Assembly: GCA_913057235.1 (NCBI GenBank)
Contig: CAJXNI010000013.1
Span: 10,005 to 74,004, forward strand
Source of the DNA: an uncultured Bacteroidota bacterium
Lineage (GTDB): Bacteria; Bacteroidota; Bacteroidia; Flavobacteriales; Schleiferiaceae
DNA length: 64,000 bases
Direction of reading: 5' to 3'
Below the pieces are notes generated by a model. The model saw nothing but the letters and a program-made list of their open reading frames with translations, made no database searches and had not been told where the DNA came from. Below are positions 9,201 to 40,390 of the stretch, piece by piece (within the stretch, counting starts at the first letter, position 1; every line of letters begins with the position of its first letter). The translations under genes were made by a program, and so were the position numbers.

Positions 9201-11859
9201 TATCTTGTACGTAAAACTCGTAGGTAGTCTGAGGAGATAAACCGGTAATATTGTACTGGTCTACCGTACCAGCTACGGAGTCAATACCCAATTGACCGGC
9301 CACTTGCGGCACAAAACCAGGCGTACCCCAGGCAATACGGGTTTTAAAACCGTCACTACCGCTACCCCAGGTGGCTGTGGCCGAAACATTGGTAACGCCA
9401 GCCACTCCTAAAGTGGTAACCAAAGGTGGTGCACAAGAAGGAATTTGCTTGTATTCAAAGTCATCTACGTGAATATTGTCAAAGGTAGAATTCATGCCGT
9501 GCTGGAATACCACGTGACCGCCACCACTGGTGATAGGGTTATTGGTCAAATCCACCACAAAGAAATCCCAAAGATCATCGTCCATTTCAGCGGCTGTAAT
9601 AGTATCCAAACCAATAAAAGTAGTTTCATCGGCCAGGTTGGTCATCACACCAATAATCAAATCAGAGCCGTCAAAAGAACCATCTTCATCGTATACAAAG
9701 AACTCCAAACGTTTTTGATCATCCAGGTCACTAAAGCGTGGGCTGGCAATACCCAAGAAGCCTGAAGTAGCTGAGGCATTATGCAGCTCCATACTGTTAC
9801 TAGGCGAATTATTCCGGAAAGCATCTGTCTGTAATTCAAAGTTGGTCGCGCTCGGATTAAATGCCAAAGGTGTCCAACAATTGTCTAAATCAGGAGCGGT
9901 GGTGCCGTCAAAGTTTTGGCTGTAAGGGGCCGTAAAAGCTGCGCACTGAGTGCAGAATTGAAGGGGTCCTATCCAACCACTTGTTCCGTTATTGGCAGCC
10001 GTACAATTAGATCGAATATACAAATCATAACAGGTGTTAGGAGATAAAGGTCCAAAGCTCACCGAGTCTGAGGTAACCGAAGTAACTGAACCTGTTCCTT
10101 GCTGAAACCCTATTGGGCCCCATTCCAGATCCCAGGTGCTTCCGGAAGGGTCACTAAATTGGACAGTGGCATTCGTATCAGTTAGGGCGGTTATAGCAGG
10201 TGAACTGGGAAATGGACATAACACGCAAGAACGAATCTCTAACTGATCAATAGCTATATCCCCAGTAAAACTAGTACCACTGGTATAAGCAAATTCAATG
10301 AAAATAGTCTGACCTACATAGGCATCTAAGCGCACGCCCACGTTTTGCCAGGGGTCTCCCTGAGCCGATTGAACAGCCCCTGAACTGGTGAAAACAGGGG
10401 TAAATGGCCCGGATGCAGAAGTACTAACACCAACCGTAAGGGTTCCAATTTGGGCACCGAAAGCATGGAGCCAAAAGGACATTTCAGCTGAATCATTGGC
10501 CGTGGATAAATCAACTGCTCCTGTCACCACAGAACCTGAAGTTGGGTTGCTTCCCGAAGTTTCATAATACATGTATTGATTTCCTTGATGCGCCCCTAAA
10601 GGCCCCGTGCTACTGGAGGACGTACCACCAGAATTTAGTCTCCATACTCCGTTTCCTGTGCCCAATCCCGTTAGATTTGGAGCTGCGCTCTCAAAATCTT
10701 CAAAATACACTACCCCAGGATTACCAGTAATGCACGTTACACCTCTCGGTCCTCTAATCGGGGTAGTAAAAGCTTCCGGGCCTGCGGTGTCACTAAAGGT
10801 ACTGCTGCCGCAATCGGCAAAAAGATACACATCATAAGCTGTGCTTGGGTTTAACCCAAACAGGTTAATGGGGCTGGAACTAACGGCTGGAGTAGCCGTG
10901 CCAGAAGAAGATGGATTGCCTTGCGGTACCACTATGGCTTGGTAGGTAATACCGGGTACAGCACCAAAATTTACCTCTGCAGTGGTAGCGGTTACATTAG
11001 TCACTGAGGTGATTTGAGGAGCCGCTAATGCTAAGGTGGCCGTAGCCGTATCATTCAGATTTGCTGTATCTGCCGTCATATTGGGCATAGTGGTCCAAGC
11101 CTTCACTACATAATTAGTTTGAGGGGCATAGGTAATGTTACCTATGTTCACCAAGGCCGAGGAAGGACCAGTGCCTGCCGCAGTGTCAAGCAGTTGACTG
11201 TAAGTTACCGGAGTTTGAGCCACCCCATTTACTTCCCACTCGATGTCTACCGTGGTAATTTGGTTGGTACCAAAGTTTTGCAGATTTACAAAAACCGGAA
11301 AAGTGCCCGGACAAGAGGAAGTAAGCGATTGGTCTATGCTACCAACACCTGCATCATTGGGGGCTGTGCTAGCCTGCATAATCTCTATCTCCCTAAAGTT
11401 AGGGTTAGAAGTTTGACCGCTACCCGTCATTTGAAAAGCCGTCATTCTAAAGCGATCTGCGAAAGTCTTTTGAATAGGCACGCGGTTAATACAAGCTTGC
11501 GGTAGGTTAGATACAGTTTCCGTAGTTACCCAGGTAGTACCATCCCACACCTGAATGGTAAAGCCTGTAAGACTACGGGCGTTGTTTTGGGCGTGATGAA
11601 TTATTAGTGAATCAAATGCCTGTACACTTGGCCATGTGAACTCAATAAAATCAGTCCCAATTACAGAGGAGGGAGGGGAGCTGGTTGGAATCCACATTTG
11701 CTGGGTTCCGCAGGTACCAAAATTGAGATCATTTAAGGTGCTGCAAGGCCCTGTGTTACAGGCGCTTGCGGTTGCTGTGGCCTGTGGGGCCAAATTGATT
11801 TGGGCCTTAGCGCCTACCCAACAGGCAATCATTCCAAATAATAGTAAGATTCTCTTCAT
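6202..11859 (-). CDS. Giant secreted protein, 1885 aa: signal peptide, discoidin-like N-domain, FN3-like + MAM-like + choice-of-anchor-J-like modules, PKD domain, T9SS C-terminal sorting domain
   Basis: Signal peptide MKRILLLFGMIACWVGAKAQ. MAM-type blocks (GVWRLNSGGTSSSSTGPLGAHQGNQYMYYETS...FTGDIAIDQLEI; RSTGPTSGNGPTSDKTGVNFLYCEAS...NGCCGDAAIDDVQF; TGPNGDATSGSGVYLYTEAS...FTGDVSIDDVEV). PKD motif (YQWDFGDGNSGTGVTTSHTY). T9SS tail (LDVYPNPTTNLVNIAF...GVYILEV). Confidence 0.9.
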   Translation of the reverse strand: MKRILLLFGMIACWVGAKAQINLAPQATATASACNTGPCSTLNDLNFGTCGTQQMWIPTSSPPSSVIGTDFIEFTWPSVQAFDSLIIHHAQNNARSLTGFTIQVWDGTTWVTTETVSNLPQACINRVPIQKTFADRFRMTAFQMTGSGQTSNPNFREIEIMQASTAPNDAGVGSIDQSLTSSCPGTFPVFVNLQNFGTNQITTVDIEWEVNGVAQTPVTYSQLLDTAAGTGPSSALVNIGNITYAPQTNYVVKAWTTMPNMTADTANLNDTATATLALAAPQITSVTNVTATTAEVNFGAVPGITYQAIVVPQGNPSSSGTATPAVSSSPINLFGLNPSTAYDVYLFADCGSSTFSDTAGPEAFTTPIRGPRGVTCITGNPGVVYFEDFESAAPNLTGLGTGNGVWRLNSGGTSSSSTGPLGAHQGNQYMYYETSGSNPTSGSVVTGAVDLSTANDSAEMSFWLHAFGAQIGTLTVGVSTSASGPFTPVFTSSGAVQSAQGDPWQNVGVRLDAYVGQTIFIEFAYTSGTSFTGDIAIDQLEIRSCVLCPFPSSPAITALTDTNATVQFSDPSGSTWDLEWGPIGFQQGTGSVTSVTSDSVSFGPLSPNTCYDLYIRSNCTAANNGTSGWIGPLQFCTQCAAFTAPYSQNFDGTTAPDLDNCWTPLAFNPSATNFELQTDAFRNNSPSNSMELHNASATSGFLGIASPRFSDLDDQKRLEFFVYDEDGSFDGSDLIIGVMTNLADETTFIGLDTITAAEMDDDLWDFFVVDLTNNPITSGGGHVVFQHGMNSTFDNIHVDDFEYKQIPSCAPPLVTTLGVAGVTNVSATATWGSGSDGFKTRIAWGTPGFVPQVAGQLGIDSVAGTVDQYNITGLSPQTTYEFYVQDSCTTDGLSPWVGPFLFSTACSIFTAPFAEDFDGNSWIASGNNNNNVLDPCWTSDPDTTSTLVFKWIPRSTGPTSGNGPTSDKTGVNFLYCEASGAGTSDTAWLVTPYVDVSTLTVPALYFSQHRNANGGNLADMQVEVTNDFGATWTQIYSVTGEIQSAAGDPWEDEIIALGNYVGDTVAVRFVQASNGCCGDAAIDDVQFAEAPTCPDVINLAANNVVDTAATLSWVGNPATNSYEFWIGPQGFFQGTQVTAGSRTIVSNPNIVIDTLNANTCFDFVVRGICAPGDTGNWVGPFTFCTPCSPFPTPYAEDFDAVTATSGDFGNCWSGLPETTTTFSFRSNTGTTTSGSTGPNGDATSGSGVYLYTEASSGTTGNVAELYSPLFDLTGQTSPEVKFAYHMYGSTIDSLNLDINDGSGWTNLMFLQGQQQTASSDPWRDTAVDISSYSGLIQLRFRVTRGTSFTGDVSIDDVEVGEPIINDAEVNALLVEAGCGDSTTAVDVVFTNRGANAITSLPVSVAVSGSQTTTLNGVYTGNLATDQTDTLRVGTVNTYGGALLNFTATANLANDQVGLNDTISEGPVEFIPFEPVGFDTVACASDDSVFLRALDVGAQYAWFGSNSPTDTIPLATGDTVAFAAANALGTYFLQYQTGVSGSLTTTYAGGNGQAGNTFDVLPTSAISLSGMDIHIGGTTTENVSVYYRLGTAAGNSNTGQINNWTLHESFTGVVGAGIGNPTNLQFSSPLNLPGGQVSAILVVLTTSTNIDYTNGTTVGAVFASNSDLTIYEGFGIGWSSGNISGSFSPRNFNGALYYGSGGCSEIRTPVNVNLSNDTTEAAFTTTGTQPTFNFDASASVNADFYQWDFGDGNSGTGVTTSHTYANNGVYTVTLTTLDSTDCISQDTATETITVNVGIEENALSQSLDVYPNPTTNLVNIAFDQVGAGEVTLSLQDAQGRVVFKETQNLSGNKFSTQIDLSAYARGVYILEVESGDLKARRSVSLR

Positions 11860-12276
11860 TTCTTTTTTGTTTAAAAGTTATCCTCTAAAGTATCAAAAAA
11901 AAGTCAGTAATTTTTCTAATTCATTTTTCAGGCCATCTTAAAACCTAAGAAAATTGGCCCTTTAAGCATTAAATGGCAAAAGCAATTGGCGCTCAAGTAA
12001 TCTAAACCACTACTTTCAAAAATTAATTCTTTAGTCGTTTCGCCCTTTGTGCTAAATTTCGGATCCTAATTCTTGTCAGAAGGCTTTCAGATGAAAGAAG
12101 GGTCACCCAGGGTCTTTTGCGCCCGTCTACCCTCTGGCAATAAAAACTCTTTATTTTAGGTTTATTGGTATTTAGGTGCTTCTAATTCTGAGATTGGGAT
12201 ATCCCTGAGATTCACAAAACAACGGTGCGCCTGTCCAAAGGCTTTAGCTCCAAAGTTTTAGTACCCGAATATTCCG

Positions 12277-12284
12277 TACCTTTG
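12277..12284 (+). promoter_or_regulatory. Candidate Bacteroidota -7 promoter element (TAnnTTTG) for the 12299 gene
   Basis: TACCTTTG lies 15 nt upstream of the ATG at 12299. I saw no clean -33 TTG at the expected spacing. Confidence 0.3.
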
Positions 12285-12298
12285 ACGCCCTGTAAAAA

Positions 12299-12595
12299 AT
12301 GACAAGTAGTATGGAAGTGCTAGACAATACAGAAATGCGCCATTTTGAGGTGAAAGTGGGCGAACGCTTGGCTTTAATTGAATACCAAATTCAAGAGAAG
12401 AAATACTTCCTCACCCGAACCGAGTTTCCTAAAAAGTTTGTGGAGCAAGGCAAAGACCAGGAAATGATGGCTGAGGTGATTAAAATGATTGAGCCTACGG
12501 GAATGCGCATTGTGCCGATGACCAAGTTTGTGAAACAGTATTTTAAAGAGCATCGCGAATTAAAGCCGCTCTTGCCGGTGGGCATTCACCTTTAA
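12299..12595 (+). CDS. Small GNAT-like N-acetyltransferase-fold protein (YjdJ-type, about 100 aa)
   Basis: The size and layout (MRHFEVKVGERLALIEYQ...YFLTRTEFPKKFVEQG...MRIVPMTKFVKQYFKEH) match the short GCN5-related 'Acetyltransf_CG' proteins as I remember them. Confidence 0.6.
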   Translation: MTSSMEVLDNTEMRHFEVKVGERLALIEYQIQEKKYFLTRTEFPKKFVEQGKDQEMMAEVIKMIEPTGMRIVPMTKFVKQYFKEHRELKPLLPVGIHL

Positions 12596-13413: not shown

Positions 13414-14310
13414 TTAGCCTTTGGTCTTTAGAACCCTGGAGAGGACAGGAACCTGAGCTATTTTATGATTCATATCTAGTTTCTGAGCGGCTAACTTCTG
13501 AGAACTGCTGTAGTTCTTTTTTGGAAAATCATAGCCTAGGGCACGCATGGCCGCACCCCCATTTTTTTCCAGGTAATACCGTAGGTGGGGAGGCCAGTTG
13601 GCACCACGGTTCAAGGGATTAAAATCTTTGCTTTTGGTGCTGCGCTGCCACTTAAACGAGCCATCTTTTTGCTTAGTGGTTGAACTGCCGTACACGGGCA
13701 GTTGCTCCAAAGCCTCGTAGTCGTAGTTAGCCGGATTCAAATCCAAAAATTCAAAGGCCTTGGTAAGCTCCTTCTCCGGATTTTTCACCAGATCTTCATA
13801 CTTGAGGAGCAAAAAGGACTGGTGCTGCTGTTCCTGAACAATACGCCTGGCACTTTCTGACCACAGTTTGATACCCTTGCGGTACGACCAAAAATCTCCA
13901 ATGTACCCTGACTCTACTGCATCTAAGCCACTGCGCACCAGCACAATTAATTGGGCATCGGAAAAGAATGATTTAAAAAGCGGCAGATTATGCGTGTAAG
14001 GCGTATGGGTAGCATAGTACTTACCTTCTTCCGTAACCGCATCACTCAAATAGCGGTAAAGCCCATCGCGCAAAGCTTCATTTAGTCTTTGCTTTTGGGA
14101 TTGGGGCGTTATTTTCTCATTCCATTTCCAAACCTCACTCCAAGAGCCAGCCACGCCCTCGCTAAAGTGCGTAAGCTTTGACAAATGATAGGTTAAAAAG
14201 TCTTCACCAACAATGCCGCAGCGGGCAATCTCTTTATGACGATGCAGGAGGTTTGCCAAATAATTACTGCCGCAACGCGGGGTTATTCCAAGGATAAAAA
14301 GTGGTTTCAT
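13414..14310 (-). CDS. Sulfotransferase-family protein
   Basis: The N-terminal ILGITPRCGSNYL resembles the 5'-phosphosulfate-binding P-loop, and VLVRSGLDAVES resembles the 3'-phosphate-binding region. The start overlaps the upstream stop as ATGA (14307-14310). Confidence 0.6.
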   Translation of the reverse strand: MKPLFILGITPRCGSNYLANLLHRHKEIARCGIVGEDFLTYHLSKLTHFSEGVAGSWSEVWKWNEKITPQSQKQRLNEALRDGLYRYLSDAVTEEGKYYATHTPYTHNLPLFKSFFSDAQLIVLVRSGLDAVESGYIGDFWSYRKGIKLWSESARRIVQEQQHQSFLLLKYEDLVKNPEKELTKAFEFLDLNPANYDYEALEQLPVYGSSTTKQKDGSFKWQRSTKSKDFNPLNRGANWPPHLRYYLEKNGGAAMRALGYDFPKKNYSSSQKLAAQKLDMNHKIAQVPVLSRVLKTKG

Positions 14311-15476
14311 GGAAGTTTAGCAAGTTGGTAAATAAAGGCCGTTCTTAAGGCCAAAATAAGGTTGAGAAAAAACAAAGCTAAATGTAAATCCTGGGGAAAC
14401 ATGAACCAAGCCACGGCTACCGCGCCATGCCAAAAAGATCCAATCAAAAATAAAAGGCGGCTGCGCTTTCTCGCCCTGTCACTAAAAAGTAAAAAAGCCA
14501 GAAACAAATGAAAGGGTAAGGCCCAAAGCAAATTTAGGTTACGGGCGGCTGCAGCATGATCGGTGAAAAACCAAAGAATAAAAAGCAGCAGACCCACCAG
14601 GCCCACACTTAAAAAGAGTAAAAAATCAGGTAGAGGACGGTAGGATTTTTTACGGTATTGCCTGATGCTGAGGGCAAGCACCACCGCCAAGAGCACCAGA
14701 AATACCAGGGTTGGAGTAACTGTGGACTTTTGGTCCTGCGGCTTTCCTGCAAAGGTAACCTGCCTTTGTGCTACCAGGGGCTTGGTTCCTTCTGCCGTTT
14801 TTAGAGTGGCTGAAGCTATGCCCTTCTCCAAATAATCCGGTAGAAACATGTATTCAAAGGCGCTGGCCTTTTTATCCATGGGTAGACCCAGGCAAATATC
14901 AATGCCTAAATCGCCCCAAGGTTGCTGGCTCAGGTATAAGTCGCATAATTCGCGTATAGAGTGCTTGGCCTCTACGTAGCTTGAATCAAAATGCAAGGTG
15001 TCGCCTAAAACCTGCAGCAAGCCATCTCGAATGCGCGTTGCGCAGTTGTCGTAAAAATAATCGTAACGGTAGGTGGCATTTTGCGGCAAAGCATTAACCT
15101 GCAAAAAATTAAAATAAGCCTGTTTTTGCCAGGGGCTTAAATTCAGTATTTGCTCATGAACGAAGCGGCCTTCAGAAGTGTAACTGCGCACAAAACGGCT
15201 GTAATCCGTTACCGCTAATTTGTAGAGTAAATTGCCTTTGGTGAAATTCAGGTAAAAATTAGGCTGGTCAAAATCAAATACTCCGTAGTTGTAGAGCAAA
15301 TCAAAGCCGGTTTTAGGATCATGCACCCGCACCGCACTATGCCCAAAAGCCGAATAGAGCTCATTTTGACCGGGCCCACAGGTAATCACACTTATCTGAG
15401 CCTGGGGCGAGAGCTGCCACTGTGCAAGCGTGCACCATGACCAGAGAATACCTAAAAGAAGGCCCATCTTTTTCAT
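14307..15476 (-). CDS. DUF4105 (Lnb-type N-terminal periplasmic domain) membrane protein
   Basis: ISVITCGPGQNELYSAFGHSAVRVHDPKTGFDLLYNYGVFDFDQPNFYLNFTKGNLLYKL is the hallmark DUF4105 block, and the C-terminal third has about 5 hydrophobic helices. The track start (15503) is a TTG. The ATG at 15476 (MKKMGLLLGILWSWCTLAQ, a signal-like peptide) is more plausible. Confidence 0.75.
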   Translation of the reverse strand: MKKMGLLLGILWSWCTLAQWQLSPQAQISVITCGPGQNELYSAFGHSAVRVHDPKTGFDLLYNYGVFDFDQPNFYLNFTKGNLLYKLAVTDYSRFVRSYTSEGRFVHEQILNLSPWQKQAYFNFLQVNALPQNATYRYDYFYDNCATRIRDGLLQVLGDTLHFDSSYVEAKHSIRELCDLYLSQQPWGDLGIDICLGLPMDKKASAFEYMFLPDYLEKGIASATLKTAEGTKPLVAQRQVTFAGKPQDQKSTVTPTLVFLVLLAVVLALSIRQYRKKSYRPLPDFLLFLSVGLVGLLLFILWFFTDHAAAARNLNLLWALPFHLFLAFLLFSDRARKRSRLLFLIGSFWHGAVAVAWFMFPQDLHLALFFLNLILALRTAFIYQLAKLP

Positions 15477-36745: not shown

Positions 36746-39700
36746 CTACATATTCCTTCTATACTGCCCTCCTACTTCAAACAAGGCAGAGGTGATTTGG
36801 CCCAAGGAGCAATACTTCACCGCTTCCATAAGCACGTCAAAAAGGTTATCATTGTGAATGGCTGCCTGCTGCAGATTCTGCAACCACTTCTCGCTATGGT
36901 CCTTATTTTTGCTGTGCAAGCGGCCCAGCATTTCTATCTGGTATTCTTTCTCCTCTTTAGTGGCCCTAATCACCTCTCCAGGCCGCACCGTTGGAGAGCC
37001 TGTGGAACTTAAGAAGGTGTTCACGCCAATAATAGGAAATTCACCCGTGTGCTTGAGGGTTTCATAGTAAAGGCTTTCTTCCTGAATTTTACCGCGTTGG
37101 TACATGGTCTCCATCGCGCCAAGCACCCCGCCTCTTTCTGTGATACGGTCAAACTCGGCTAAAACGGCTTCTTCTACTAAGTCGGTCAGCTCTTCAATAA
37201 TAAAGCTGCCCTGTATGGGGTTTTCGTTTTTGGCAAGTCCCAGTTCTTTATTGATGATCAACTGAATAGCCATCGCTCTACGCACACTTTCTTCGGTAGG
37301 CGTGGTGATGGCCTCATCGTAAGCATTGGTGTGCAGAGAGTTACAGTTATCGTAGATCGCGTAAAGCGCCTGCAGTGTGGTGCGGATGTCGTTGAACTGA
37401 ATCTCCTGTGCGTGCAATGAACGCCCTGAAGTCTGAATGTGGTATTTAAGCATTTGCGCACGAGGTGAAGCTCCATACTTCTCCTTCATGGCCTTACTCC
37501 AAATTTTTCGGGCCACACGGCCAATTACTGCGTACTCAGGATCAATACCGTTGCTAAAAAAGAAGCTCAGGTTAGGACCAAATTTGTCGATATCCATGCC
37601 GCGGCTCAGGTAGTATTCCACATAAGTGAAACCATTGGCCAAGGTAAATGCGAGTTGCGTAATGGGGTTGGCGCCTGCCTCAGCAATGTGGTAGCCGCTA
37701 ATAGATACCGAGTAAAAGTTACGCACTTTCTTGGCGATAAAGCTTTCCTGCACGTCACCCATCAGGCGTAAAGCAAACTCAGTGGAAAATATGCAGGTGT
37801 TTTGGGCCTGATCTTCTTTCAGAATATCAGCCTGAACAGTACCACGCACTGTGGCCAGCGTTTTGGCTTTAATTTCACCATACACTTGAGGTTCTAACAC
37901 TTGATCACCTGTAATGCCTAAAAGCATAAGACCTAAACCGTTGTTGCCTTCCGGCAGATCGCCATCAACGTTTACACCAGAAAGAACTTTCTGCTGGGTC
38001 GTTTCGGTAACCTCAGTGGCCCCGGTTTCAATTGCTTTATTATCCTCTATTTTGGCTTCCTCACCGCGTTTGGCAATATTGCCTTGATATTTTGGACGCT
38101 CTAAACCCTGATCATCGTACAGTTCCTTAAGCTTAGCCTCTACCTTACTTTCCAAACCGTTTTCACGGATGTACTTCTCACATTCTTGATCTATGGCCGC
38201 ATTCATAAAGAAAGCTAAAAGCATGGGCGCAGGACCATTAATGGTCATACTTACCGAGGTGGTTGGGGCCGTTAATTCAAAGCCTGAGTATAGTTTCTTG
38301 GCGTCATCTAAACAACATATGCTTACCCCGGAATTACCAATTTTCCCGTAAATATCAGGACGGTAGTCCGGATCATTACCATAAAGTGTTACCGAATCAA
38401 AAGCAGTACTCAAACGCGCAGCTGGCATATCCTGACTCACGTAGTGAAAACGCCTGTTGGTGCGCTCAGGGCCTCCTTCTCCGGCAAACATTCGGGTAGG
38501 GTCTTCACCAGTTCTTTTAAAAGGATAGATTCCTGCAGTGTATGGGAATTCACCCGGAACGTTTTCTTGCAGATTCCATTTAAGCAGGTCACCCCAGGCG
38601 GTGTATTTGGGCACTGCAACCTTTGGTACTTGCGTGTGACTCAGCGATTTGGTGTGTGTTTCAATTTCAATTTTTTTGTCACGCACGGTAAAGGTGTACA
38701 CCTCATCTTTATAGCGCTTCACTTTAGCCTCCCACCCGGAAATTATATCCCAGTTGTGAGGATCCAAGTCTTTTTTGATTTCTATGAATTTATCGATGAG
38801 GGTAGCTACAGTAGTGTCTTCCCCCCCGCTGCGCGGCCCCCCTCCAGAGGGGGCTAAGCCCCCTTGCCCTTCGGGCGTTCCCCTTGAGGGAGAAATGGGC
38901 TGACCAGATAAGTCCTGGCCGGAACCAGCTCCCTTCCTCTGGGGAAGGGTTGGGGATGGGCTTTTCAGCAAATCGGGCCCACCAAAGGTTAGTACGGCCT
39001 GGTAAAGCCCAAAGAGTTTTTGTGCTACCGCAGCCTGCTCTTTGGCTTTCTTGTCATAAGCGCGATTATTCTCCGCAATCTCAGACAAATAACGGGTGCG
39101 GTTAGGCGGAATAATGTAAATTTTCTCGCTCATTTCGGCACTGCTTAAGAAACTGGTCTTTAGCTGATCAGCGCCTGTTTTCTCTACAATTTTGTTCATC
39201 AAAGCTCGGTACAGCTGGTTGGTACCAGGATCATTAAACTGGCTGGCAATACTGCCGTAAACGGGCATTGCATCTGGGTCTTGATCAAACATCTGATGGT
39301 TGCGTTGATATTGCTTTTTAACATCGCGCAAAGCATCTAAAGCCCCTCTTTTATCAAATTTGTTGAGGGCGATGATGTCGGCAAAATCCAGCATGTCAAT
39401 TTTTTCCAACTGCGTAGCTGCCCCGTATTCTGGGGTCATCACATAGAGTGAAACATCACTGTGCTCTATAATTTCCGTGTCACTCTGTCCAATACCCGAG
39501 GTCTCCAAAATAATCAGGTCGTATTTAGCCGCCTTGAGAATATTTACCGCCTCTTGCACATGTTTACTCAAGGCAAGATTACTCTGCCGAGTAGCTAATG
39601 AACGCATGTATACTCGCTTATTGCGGATGGCGTTCATGCGGATGCGGTCTCCCAAAAGGGCACCACCTGTTTTACGTTTACTGGGGTCAACTGATACAAT

Positions 39701-40390
39701 CGCGATGGTTTTGTCTTCAAAATCTAGTAGGAATCTACGCACCAGTTCATCTACCAAAGAAGACTTACCAGCCCCTCCTGTACCCGTAATACCTAGTACC
39801 GGTGTTTTAACTTCTGTTGCTCTCTTGTCAATGACATCCAACACTTCTTTGGACTCATCCATGTAGTTTTCAGCAGCCGAAATAAGCCGGGCAATGGCCG
39901 GTTTGAATTTTTCCTCTAACTGATCTACCTCTCCATTGATTTCTTTTCCAGTGGGGAAATCTGCTTTTTCCACCATGTCATTAATCATGCCCTGTAAGCC
40001 CATTTCGCGGCCATCGTCTGGCGAGTAGATTCTGTCAATGCCATACTCGTGAAGTTCCTCTATTTCCTCAGGAAGAATCACTCCTCCTCCACCACCAAAA
40101 ATTTTGATGTGCTTTGCTCCCTTCTCATTCAAAAGGTCACGCATGTATTTGAAGTACTCTATGTGTCCGCCTTGGTACGAAGTCATGGCTATGGCCTGAG
40201 CGTCTTCCTGAATAGCGGTGTTTACTACCTCTTCTACCGAACGGTCATGACCCAAGTGAATCACTTCGCAACCCGTGGCTTGGATAATGCGCCTCATCAC
40301 GTTAATAGCAGCATCATGGCCATCAAAAAGGGAGGCGGCTGTTACTATTCTAATCTTGTTTTTGGGCTTATAGGGCGCTATTTGCTGCAT
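36746..40390 (-). CDS. icmF: Fused isobutyryl-CoA mutase-like protein (B12-binding domain + MeaB-like G-protein + acyl-CoA mutase barrel), 1214 aa
   Basis: [22 protein letters not shown] (DxHxxG B12 motif), [15 protein letters not shown] (P-loop) with NKFD, and mutase-domain blocks ([77 protein letters not shown]). Confidence 0.88.
38821..38965. repeat. GC-rich cluster of four short palindromes (REP/MITE-like segment) lying in frame inside icmF
   Basis: The 60-nt line starting at 38821 has 47 G+C, against 21 of 60 in the preceding line. Hairpins: ccccctc/gaggggg (38838-38853), ggggc-taa-gcccc (38850-38862), gccc-ttc-gggc (38866-38876) and cccttcc-tctgg-ggaaggg (38931-38949). It encodes the Pro/Gly/Ser-rich stretch [47 protein letters not shown]. 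Confidence 0.6.

Follow-up and report, generated by a model that had tools for sequence, protein, structure and literature searches.

The 64,000-nt window analysed here (the whole stretch, positions 10,005 to 74,004 of contig CAJXNI010000013.1 from an uncultured Bacteroidota bacterium of the Schleiferiaceae) contains icmF, the gene for a fused isobutyryl-CoA mutase. Within the gene lies a GC-rich segment of 147 nt that is built of short hairpins and read through in frame. The question is where such a segment comes from and how the gene can carry it. Judged from sequence comparison, it is very likely a dispersed repeat that was inserted in frame, and the explanation that best accounts for the data as a whole is probably that of a selfish, non-autonomous composite of hairpin modules in the IcmF linker. 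Both ends of the element belong to repeat families with many dispersed copies, its occurrence among orthologues is patchy, a relative carries the same composite at another site of icmF, and the modules are statistically associated with genes of the DUF559 family.

An earlier reading of the window, made from its letters alone (the sequence-only reading), had described a GC-rich segment of about 145 nt assembled from short palindromes, with 47 G+C in the 60 nt at 38821-38880 and 21 in the 60 nt at 38761-38820. Both counts are exact, all the palindromes are present (Table 1), and the edges were refined to 38816-38962. The GC content of the element is 67% versus 46% in the remainder of icmF, a step of 21 points, and the 100-nt GC peak (0.70, at 38821) is the highest value anywhere in the 64 kb (mean 0.44, sd 0.06). 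Three perfect short-loop hairpins with stems of at least 7 bp were observed versus 0.09 expected from mononucleotide shuffles (p about 0.001), and the outer two hairpins of the element form a 14-nt inverted repeat that is 79% complementary. The element is free of stop codons, and the Pro/Gly/Ser-rich peptide was found as quoted in the sequence-only reading, at aa 477-523 of the translation. A second independent assembly (L009, 99.7% identity across 15.7 kb) contains the identical insert, so it is no assembly artefact.

The identity of the host gene was confirmed at the sequence level: three domains are present in one chain (Pfam B12-binding PF02310, aa 14-119; MeaB PF03308, aa 167-366; MM_CoA_mutase PF01642, aa 839-1207), and the protein is homologous to a solved structure, that of Cupriavidus IcmF (PDB 4xc6; E=0, three matching stretches). 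Relative to 4xc6, the window protein has two extra stretches, at query aa 459-547 and aa 752-837. The placement of the peptide between the MeaB-like G domain and the mutase barrel was borne out by these comparisons, and the statement of the sequence-only reading that characterised IcmF proteins have no such stretch agrees with the gap relative to 4xc6. In an AlphaFold2 model (66-sequence alignment) aa 469-521 form a low-confidence coil (pLDDT 47-61), and the flanking helices reach pLDDT values of 80-97.

The 3' end of the element, in coding sense, is a type A module. This type was defined by the hairpin CCCCCTyTGGAGGGGG, a 4-bp covarying hairpin, a G-run followed by AGGA and a significant score with covariance model R1, which was built from 59 copies, all of them from genomes other than that of the window. 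In the 64 kb, R1 found the module of Table 1 as its sole significant match (42.6 bits, E=1.1e-9). When one genome per species was scanned with the pattern CCCCCTYTGGAGGGGGN{9,13}GGGGG, at least 143 copies were found in at least 119 genome stretches, versus about 3 expected by a rough uniform-composition estimate. The matches listed were mostly from Bacteroidota (Saprospirales, Lewinellaceae, Sphingobacteriaceae, Flavobacteriales, Cytophagia, Bacteroidales), and other hosts were Paceibacteria, Ignavibacteria, Calditrichota and a few Proteobacteria. The copies have features in common that lie beyond the scan pattern, namely a 5' TAT/TGT, a second hairpin and a 3' AGG(A/T). The stem of the second hairpin varies by compensatory change (GGCC/GGCC, GCCC/GGGC, GCTC/GAGC, GTCT/AGAC and others), and for this helix 35 double-change cells were counted versus 13.6±2.5 in shuffles, with slid controls at 13 or fewer. 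On the module-bearing loci R1 gave 174 copies in 672 kb, and additional intergenic copies were detected in L005 and L002.

Many type A copies are inverted doublets of 117-174 nt with the G-run ends outward, the arrangement found in the window. Canonical doublets have clear inverted ends (CCTCCCCC.../...GGGGGAGG and AGCCCATCC/GGATGGGCT). Most copies are intergenic (spanning open reading frame, ORF, below 200 aa) and a minority lie within long ORFs, whose products were confirmed by Pfam as leucyl-tRNA synthetase (LeuRS; L068, also L092), MnmG/GidA (L116) and a D-2-hydroxyacid dehydrogenase (L025, opposite orientation). At least 20 copies were found in the Saprospirales metagenome-assembled genome (MAG) VAR_61_metabat_508 (L047, L026, L037, L043 and others). 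Beyond the G-run its doublets continue into lineage-specific extensions (aggtagccacgctc / gagcgtggctacct), and their inner arms are conserved, so that the core module forms part of longer inverted repeats peculiar to the species.

The 5' end of the element, which reads AGCCCATCCCCAACCCTTCCCCAGAGGAAGGGAGC in coding sense, is a module of type B, defined as AGCCCATCCCCA(A/G)CCCTTCCC-loop-GGGAAGGGAG. Its first 21 nt match the 21-mer pattern AGCCCATCCCCARCCCTTMCC exactly, and the hairpin is completed by a CCAGA loop and a GGAAGGG arm. In metagenomes the 21-mer was found in at least 128 copies on at least 119 stretches, and nearly all the copies listed continue into the same hairpin, which the pattern did not demand. 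Type B copies are often paired with hairpin-TTAGGATGGGCT at a distance of 40-70 nt. A proteobacterial/actinobacterial variant, ccccttCCCCCTCTGGAGGGGGaaggTTGGGATGGGGG, was observed in L030, L049, L112 (Gammaproteobacteria Milos-ODIII6), L051 (Noviherbaspirillum) and L076 (Streptomyces MAG). The tail of this variant resembles the type B end of the window (GGAAGGGTTGGGGATGGGC), which suggests that types A and B are one superfamily.

The organism of the window is Owenweeksia-like, within the Flavobacteriales. The insert site was compared in 120 IcmF homologues. The linker between 'GGPDLLK' and 'TxxxLIxKF' (site 1) has a baseline of 3-12 mostly acidic residues, with 8-10 in close orthologues, and its length ranges from 0 to 185 residues. 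The window protein has 50 residues there, versus 8 in P0003 (87% identity) and 16, from a different module, in P0002 (89% identity). G/P-rich hairpin inserts are patchy across the homologues, and parsimony on a neighbour-joining tree gave at least 10 state changes with 'absent' as the root state. The proteins P0069-71 and P0075, only 76-78% identical, bear 'MSPSGGGTRSGGEE', a near-match to a 13-residue peptide of the window. At the DNA level a shared unit, CCCCCT(C/T)TGGAGGGGG in coding sense, followed by a mini-hairpin of 9-13 nt and a G-run with A(A/G)GA, is located in the window, in L002 and in Owenweeksia hongkongensis (L005). In the latter, where intergenic module copies adjoin icmF, the unit occurs once in the gene, giving the IcmF peptide 'LSPSGGGAQGAGED', and also in the intergenic DNA directly upstream. 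By model R1 the icmF inserts of L002 and L006 are inverted doublets of 102 and 84 nt.

The modules also occur at a second place in icmF. Site 2 is a variable loop of the mutase barrel between 'YQG' and 'LPxGNxGLGL'; in the window it has 41 extra aa and its GC content is not high. The insertion there is clade-specific, being common to many Owenweeksia-clade proteins (up to 55 inserted residues in relatives), and Roseivirga and others have zero inserted residues. In relatives the loop bears hairpin modules (L003 at 3673, L007 at 12330, L129 at 12188-12331). The element of L129 (protein P0037) is 144 nt long, opens with a type B end and closes with a type A module; the type B end is almost unchanged at site 2 in L129 and L130. 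Without insertion, the same composite at a different loop of icmF would be difficult to account for. A variant, CCCCCCTnnAGGGGGG-CAn-GGGGGGTGA, was found at both site 1 and site 2 of one icmF gene, in L003 and in L007. The four icmF elements that were measured (147, 144, 102 and 84 nt) are all multiples of three without stop codons.

In other relatives a second, unrelated palindrome family, TGTCACCCTGAGTG-[variable hairpin]-GTATCGAAGGGTGA, stands in frame at the same two sites, with IcmF peptides such as 'DVTLSDS..SGIVSKG' and 'MLRYITPGRDVSKHD'. Since two unrelated families occur at the same two loops, these are permissive landing places and not the specific target of one element. Positions of the second family are 11504, 12329, 13953-14666 and 20600-21650 in L130, 11525-11600 in L008, where it forms a perfect palindrome with a 20-bp stem, and 11444 and 15102-15590 in L007. 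In intergenic DNA its copies are also arrayed in tandem, repeating about every 165-190 nt. Inside one such array (L130, 21316-21609) lies a small gene for a GIY-YIG nuclease (PF01541), a hint that the pairing of small nuclease genes with dispersed hairpin repeats may be more general.

The coordinates of the features in the window are collected in Table 1. The antisense ORF listed there is almost certainly spurious, held open by the stop-poor composition.

Table 1. Coordinates of icmF, the inserted element and its parts, and other features within the 64-kb window (sequences in coding sense where so marked)
Feature	Position	Strand	Description	Basis
icmF, fused isobutyryl-CoA mutase	36746..40390	minus	1214 aa, ORF intact	ORF list and translation
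Composite inserted element	38816..38962	minus	147 nt, codons 477-525 (49 codons); missing from closest orthologues	
Type A module	38815..38858	minus	3' end of element (coding sense): hairpin 1, hairpin 2, G-run then AAGAC	model R1 match
Hairpin 1 of type A module	38838..38853		CCCCCTC-nn-GAGGGGG	
Hairpin 2 of type A module	38826..38836	minus	CCGC-GCA-GCGG (coding sense); G-run next, 38821-38827	aligned to the covarying helix 2 of the family
Hairpin AGGGGGCT/AGCCCCCT	38848-38864			read in sequence
Hairpin GCCC-TTC-GGGC	38866-38876			read in sequence
Internal degenerate mini-doublet	38857..38901	minus	AGCCCATTTC-TCCCTCAAGGGGA-AC-GCCCGAAGGGC-AAGGGGGCT (coding sense); ends AGCCCAT... and ...GGGGGCT resemble type B consensus ends (by eye)	
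Middle spacer	38902..38927	minus	weak CCAG-N7-CTGG hairpin	
Type B module	38928..38962	minus	5' end of element (coding sense): AGCCCATCCCCAA-CCCTTCC-CCAGA-GGAAGGG-AGC	
Type B hairpin CCCTTCC/GGAAGGG	38931-38949			read in sequence
Site 2 of icmF	37958-38080	minus	aa 771-811, variable loop	
Antisense ORF	38444-38857	plus	137 aa, overlaps icmF, terminates within the GC-rich element	

A recurrent neighbour of the modules is a gene of the DUF559 family. With the type A and type B loci taken together, 11 of the 12 DUF559 genes have a module at a distance of about 300 nt or less. For the type A loci the count was 8 of 9 (P=7e-6 versus random placement in the same loci), and in the type B loci, which are independent, all three DUF559 genes are less than 100 nt from a module (P=0.005). 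A same-strand module is situated at most 90 nt upstream of the DUF559 ORF in six of eight cases, often with a reverse-oriented partner further upstream. Unbiased clustering of the ORFs within 300 nt of the modules (at least 143 copies) returned DUF559 as the only recurrent family, in 7 genomes; no transposase-like family was recurrent among these ORFs, a result obtained with no RAYT (REP-associated tyrosine transposase) profile or whole-genome search.

DUF559 domains were also found in frame inside host proteins. P0100, a more distant IcmF, has a complete DUF559 domain at site 1 (E=4e-19 to PDB 3hrl), followed by a module-like hairpin and a G-run, and is the only case of DUF559 at the icmF insert site. 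In L068 (1302-4892, minus strand; Flavobacteriales MAG JBEIPP010000016) the LeuRS ORF of 1197 aa includes DUF559 at aa 618-721 (E=5.5e-37) together with at least three hairpin-module peptides, 'SPEGGELSRSNSSPSGRLGGA', 'LSNSPQGGED' and 'MSPSGGGAQRAGEDA', the last of which is also present in L092. The family itself is large (23,356 clusters at E<=1e-3, clustered at 50% identity). Of the 150 domains most closely related to that of P0100, about 20 form part of a long protein, and Pfam was run on ten of these embedded examples. The hosts were HsdS, with the domain between the two target-recognition domains (P0124, P0126, P0127, P0139, P0156), Eco57I/MmeI-type methylases (P0122, P0123, P0132; P0123 with two DUF559 copies), the Type ISP enzyme P0125 and the class I aminoacyl-tRNA synthetase P0159. 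The flanks of the embedded domains look like translated hairpins, with 'SSPPxLGGV..GRGG' N-terminal and 'TPPxKGGE' C-terminal to the domain. A narrow regular expression for such peptides matched only 13 of the 150 closest DUF559 proteins; the evidence on the flanks is therefore that of the 20 embedded examples, which were read directly.

In the literature, one member of the Vsr/DUF559 fold group, I-Bth0305I, is a proven homing endonuclease (PMC3424549, PMC3239194). Among predicted targets of programmed inversion, DUF559 genes are over-represented (PMC9881135), which would follow if inverted repeats lie on both sides of them. In the open-access literature on DUF559 no account of associated repeats or of in-frame insertions was found, which, given this scope, is weak evidence of novelty.

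From these data the following explanation is proposed. The composite would consist, from left to right, of a type B end, a degenerate doublet in the interior and a type A end, and its modules would have entered IcmF at the surface linker that joins the G domain to the mutase barrel. The insert would persist because its length is a multiple of three, its C-run/G-run composition is stop-free, its Pro/Gly/Ser-rich peptide is flexible and the linker accepts nearly any length. We infer that it is most likely translated, and tolerated, as part of a functional IcmF. In complete form, the units to which the modules belong may have a DUF559 (Vsr-fold, PD-(D/E)xK) endonuclease gene directly downstream of a doublet, the modules being their solo or doublet form. 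The nuclease would cut DNA in or close to the modules, and the elements would then be copied by host repair or by gene conversion, much as in the REPIN/RAYT arrangement but with another enzyme. The association of the genes with the modules points to such a DUF559-dependent mobilisation, which we regard as possible rather than probable.

Several observations weigh against this explanation. No target-site duplication was seen at the junctions of the window (CTGAAA/.../ACTACT), L129 (CAGGGA/.../TTAAAG) and L002, few as these junctions are, and no clear target motif was found. The window has zero further copies of the element (blastn-short; covariance model with filters off), so the multi-copy status had to come from other genomes, and the chance expectation for the pattern scans is a rough estimate of our own. 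The likeness of the mini-doublet to the type B family was judged by eye without a statistic, and no relatives were found for the middle spacer of 26 nt. Total folding energy was no better than that of dinucleotide shuffles (RNA z=-0.08, DNA z=-0.75); the strong evidence is therefore the homology to repeat families, and the argument from thermodynamic stability was dropped. DUF559 genes are absent from the window and from the loci of the nine nearest relatives (about 190 kb), and about 95% of the module copies have none nearby. DUF559 genes could home into pre-existing modules, or the modules could be regulatory parts of DUF559 genes. A PD-(D/E)xK nuclease by itself cannot do strand transfer.

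These points bear on the other explanations in different ways. The modules might be moved by other machinery, with DUF559 as a passenger or homing gene: a RAYT/IS200-type tyrosine transposase, an insertion sequence (IS) transposase acting in trans on the ends of miniature inverted-repeat transposable elements (MITEs), or template switching in replication or repair. Inverted doublets besides single copies, and the lack of target-site duplications, are what is seen in REP/REPIN (repetitive extragenic palindromes and their doublets) and IS200/IS605-type elements (PMC3733652). The scarcity of DUF559 near the copies speaks for it as well, as does the position of the gene outside the doublets, on the G-run side and not between the arms. 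The ORF clustering, however, returned only DUF559 and nothing transposase-like, and the tag at the base of the stem is (T/G)(A/G)T, that is TAT or TGT on its 5' side in the 59 aligned copies, not the GTAG or CGTC of the REP superfamilies (PMC3733652). Movement by other machinery is unlikely, though by no means far-fetched. A classical MITE was rejected, given that target-site duplications are lacking at the inspected junctions and no parent IS with a transposase was found near the copies. It is improbable that the modules are functional structured RNAs, either relatives of Whalefall-1 or cis-regulatory, terminator-like hairpins, with the icmF copy pausing or stabilising the mRNA. The canonical copies do share the layout of Whalefall-1 (Rfam RF01762; GUAU-hairpin(UUGG)-hairpin-GGGnGAGGAC), the only Rfam family that they match, at sub-threshold E-values of 0.006-0.02 (17.5-18.5 bits versus a gathering threshold of 37), and Whalefall-1 was graded as certainly an RNA by Weinberg et al. 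(PMC2864571). The window copy, by contrast, has no match to it at E<=1, and Rfam gave no meaningful match for the window region (BjrC80 at E=0.71). The covariation of hairpin 2 would arise just as well in a DNA hairpin that a protein recognises. On the forward strand 16 G·T wobbles were counted versus 5 A·C mismatches, a result that is weak and biased by the covariance-model alignment, so RNA versus DNA is not settled by it. The copies behave as repeats: they number in the hundreds, are dispersed with flanks peculiar to each lineage, and occur within ORFs in either orientation as well as in inverted doublets. The icmF copies are patchy among orthologues and so not needed by the gene. A CRISPR repeat and a terminator were also rejected.

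Expansion of an ordinary low-complexity linker in place, by slippage or GC-biased drift and with no mobile origin, would fit the range of site lengths among the homologues and the unexceptional folding energy. It is nevertheless very improbable: both ends are homologous at the DNA level to repeats in unrelated genes, intergenic DNA and other phyla, the composite recurs at the other icmF site in L129, and the GC content lies 21 points above that of the rest of icmF. Least credible of all, to a degree that makes it hardly worth retaining, is an untranslated segment, with an intein, an intron or translational bypassing removing or skipping the element, or an assembly chimera. All four measured elements keep the frame free of stops, no intein or intron signatures were found, and two independent assemblies agree.

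In-frame palindromic repeats are, as a phenomenon, already known. Rickettsia palindromic elements (RPE) were reportedly described by Ogata et al. in 2000. To our knowledge, in-frame selfish palindromes are textbook matter only for Rickettsia and a few REP-rich Proteobacteria. Like RPE and the intragenic REPs surveyed by Di Nocera et al. 2013 (PMC3733652), the modules are short palindromic dispersed repeats, mostly intergenic and in some cases in frame in housekeeping genes, where they add 20-80 residues at permissive surface positions, often as dimers and sometimes twice per gene. Unlike them, the modules are found in Bacteroidota and others, with different sequences, conservation across phyla, a covarying second hairpin and G-run tails. 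The enzyme partner differs as well, being DUF559 here, RAYT for REP and none for RPE. The hosts of RPE are unrelated to those of the modules, and in-frame palindromic insertion as a behaviour is the only shared feature. The dispersed single and inverted-doublet copies, mostly intergenic, agree with REP, and the small enzyme gene flanked by units at a few places per genome, together with the lack of target-site duplications, agrees with REPIN/REPtron systems. The partner is, however, a Vsr-fold PD-(D/E)xK nuclease instead of an HUH/Y1 transposase, and no RAYT was seen in the ORFs near the copies. Terminal inverted repeats as in MITEs are present, both as the 14-nt repeat of the window and in the canonical doublets. 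The published description of Whalefall-1 is that of a free-standing non-coding RNA found in a single metagenome (PMC2864571); the modules, in contrast, are dispersed and lie also in coding regions, and Whalefall-1 may be one branch of their family. As in Vsr-like (EDxHD) homing endonucleases such as I-Bth0305I (PMC3239194) and in inteins, a Vsr-fold nuclease stands in frame with the host ORF intact (P0100 IcmF, L068 LeuRS). Unlike in those systems, DUF559 has no surrounding intron or intein and appears to be retained in the host protein beside hairpin-derived peptides; homing is putative.

The sequence-only reading had taken the element for a REP/MITE-like palindromic insert tolerated in a linker. 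This is supported and essentially right: a dispersed repeat in frame was found, and both checks that the reading had named, orthologues and further copies, favour an inserted repeat. It needs correction in that no transposase partner was found among the ORFs near the copies and no target-site duplication at the inspected junctions. The outer hairpins, which had been seen as a pair resembling terminal inverted repeats, do form the 14-nt inverted repeat, but the element combines at least three modules from two subfamilies and is not one unit with similar ends. Further copies, expected in the genome, are absent from the window, while both ends are members of dispersed families in other genomes and metagenomes. 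The alternative that the reading had named, an ancient linker, does not hold, since the insert is patchy and is missing or different in the closest relatives. Its parallel with the in-frame palindromes of Rickettsia is apt for behaviour, as an analogy and not as family membership.

The module family, its conservation across phyla and its pairing with DUF559 seem to be undescribed so far. We tentatively suggest, with the chances somewhat against it, that DUF559 and the type A and B modules form an undescribed cross-phylum selfish class, REPtron-like and driven by a PD-(D/E)xK nuclease, in which solo doublets and the nuclease form settle in frame in IcmF, LeuRS, MnmG and HsdS without an intein or intron, and of which Whalefall-1 would be one branch. 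If this is true, nuclease domains and hairpin-encoded peptides are left embedded in host proteins. Nuclease domains that persist unspliced in essential host proteins would be relevant to engineering, to mobile elements and to the tolerance of proteins to insertion. For DUF559, a family of more than 23,000 clusters at 50% identity and of unknown function, the proposed role is that of a nuclease travelling with, and perhaps spreading, hairpin repeats. Whalefall-1 would be better seen as a member of a repeat family than as a free-standing RNA. For annotation, the modules account for the many odd Pro/Gly-rich inserts and spurious small ORFs in these genomes, and they flag permissive enzyme loops such as those of IcmF. 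The in-frame behaviour of selfish palindromes is now found in Bacteroidota also, with modules that are conserved across phyla.

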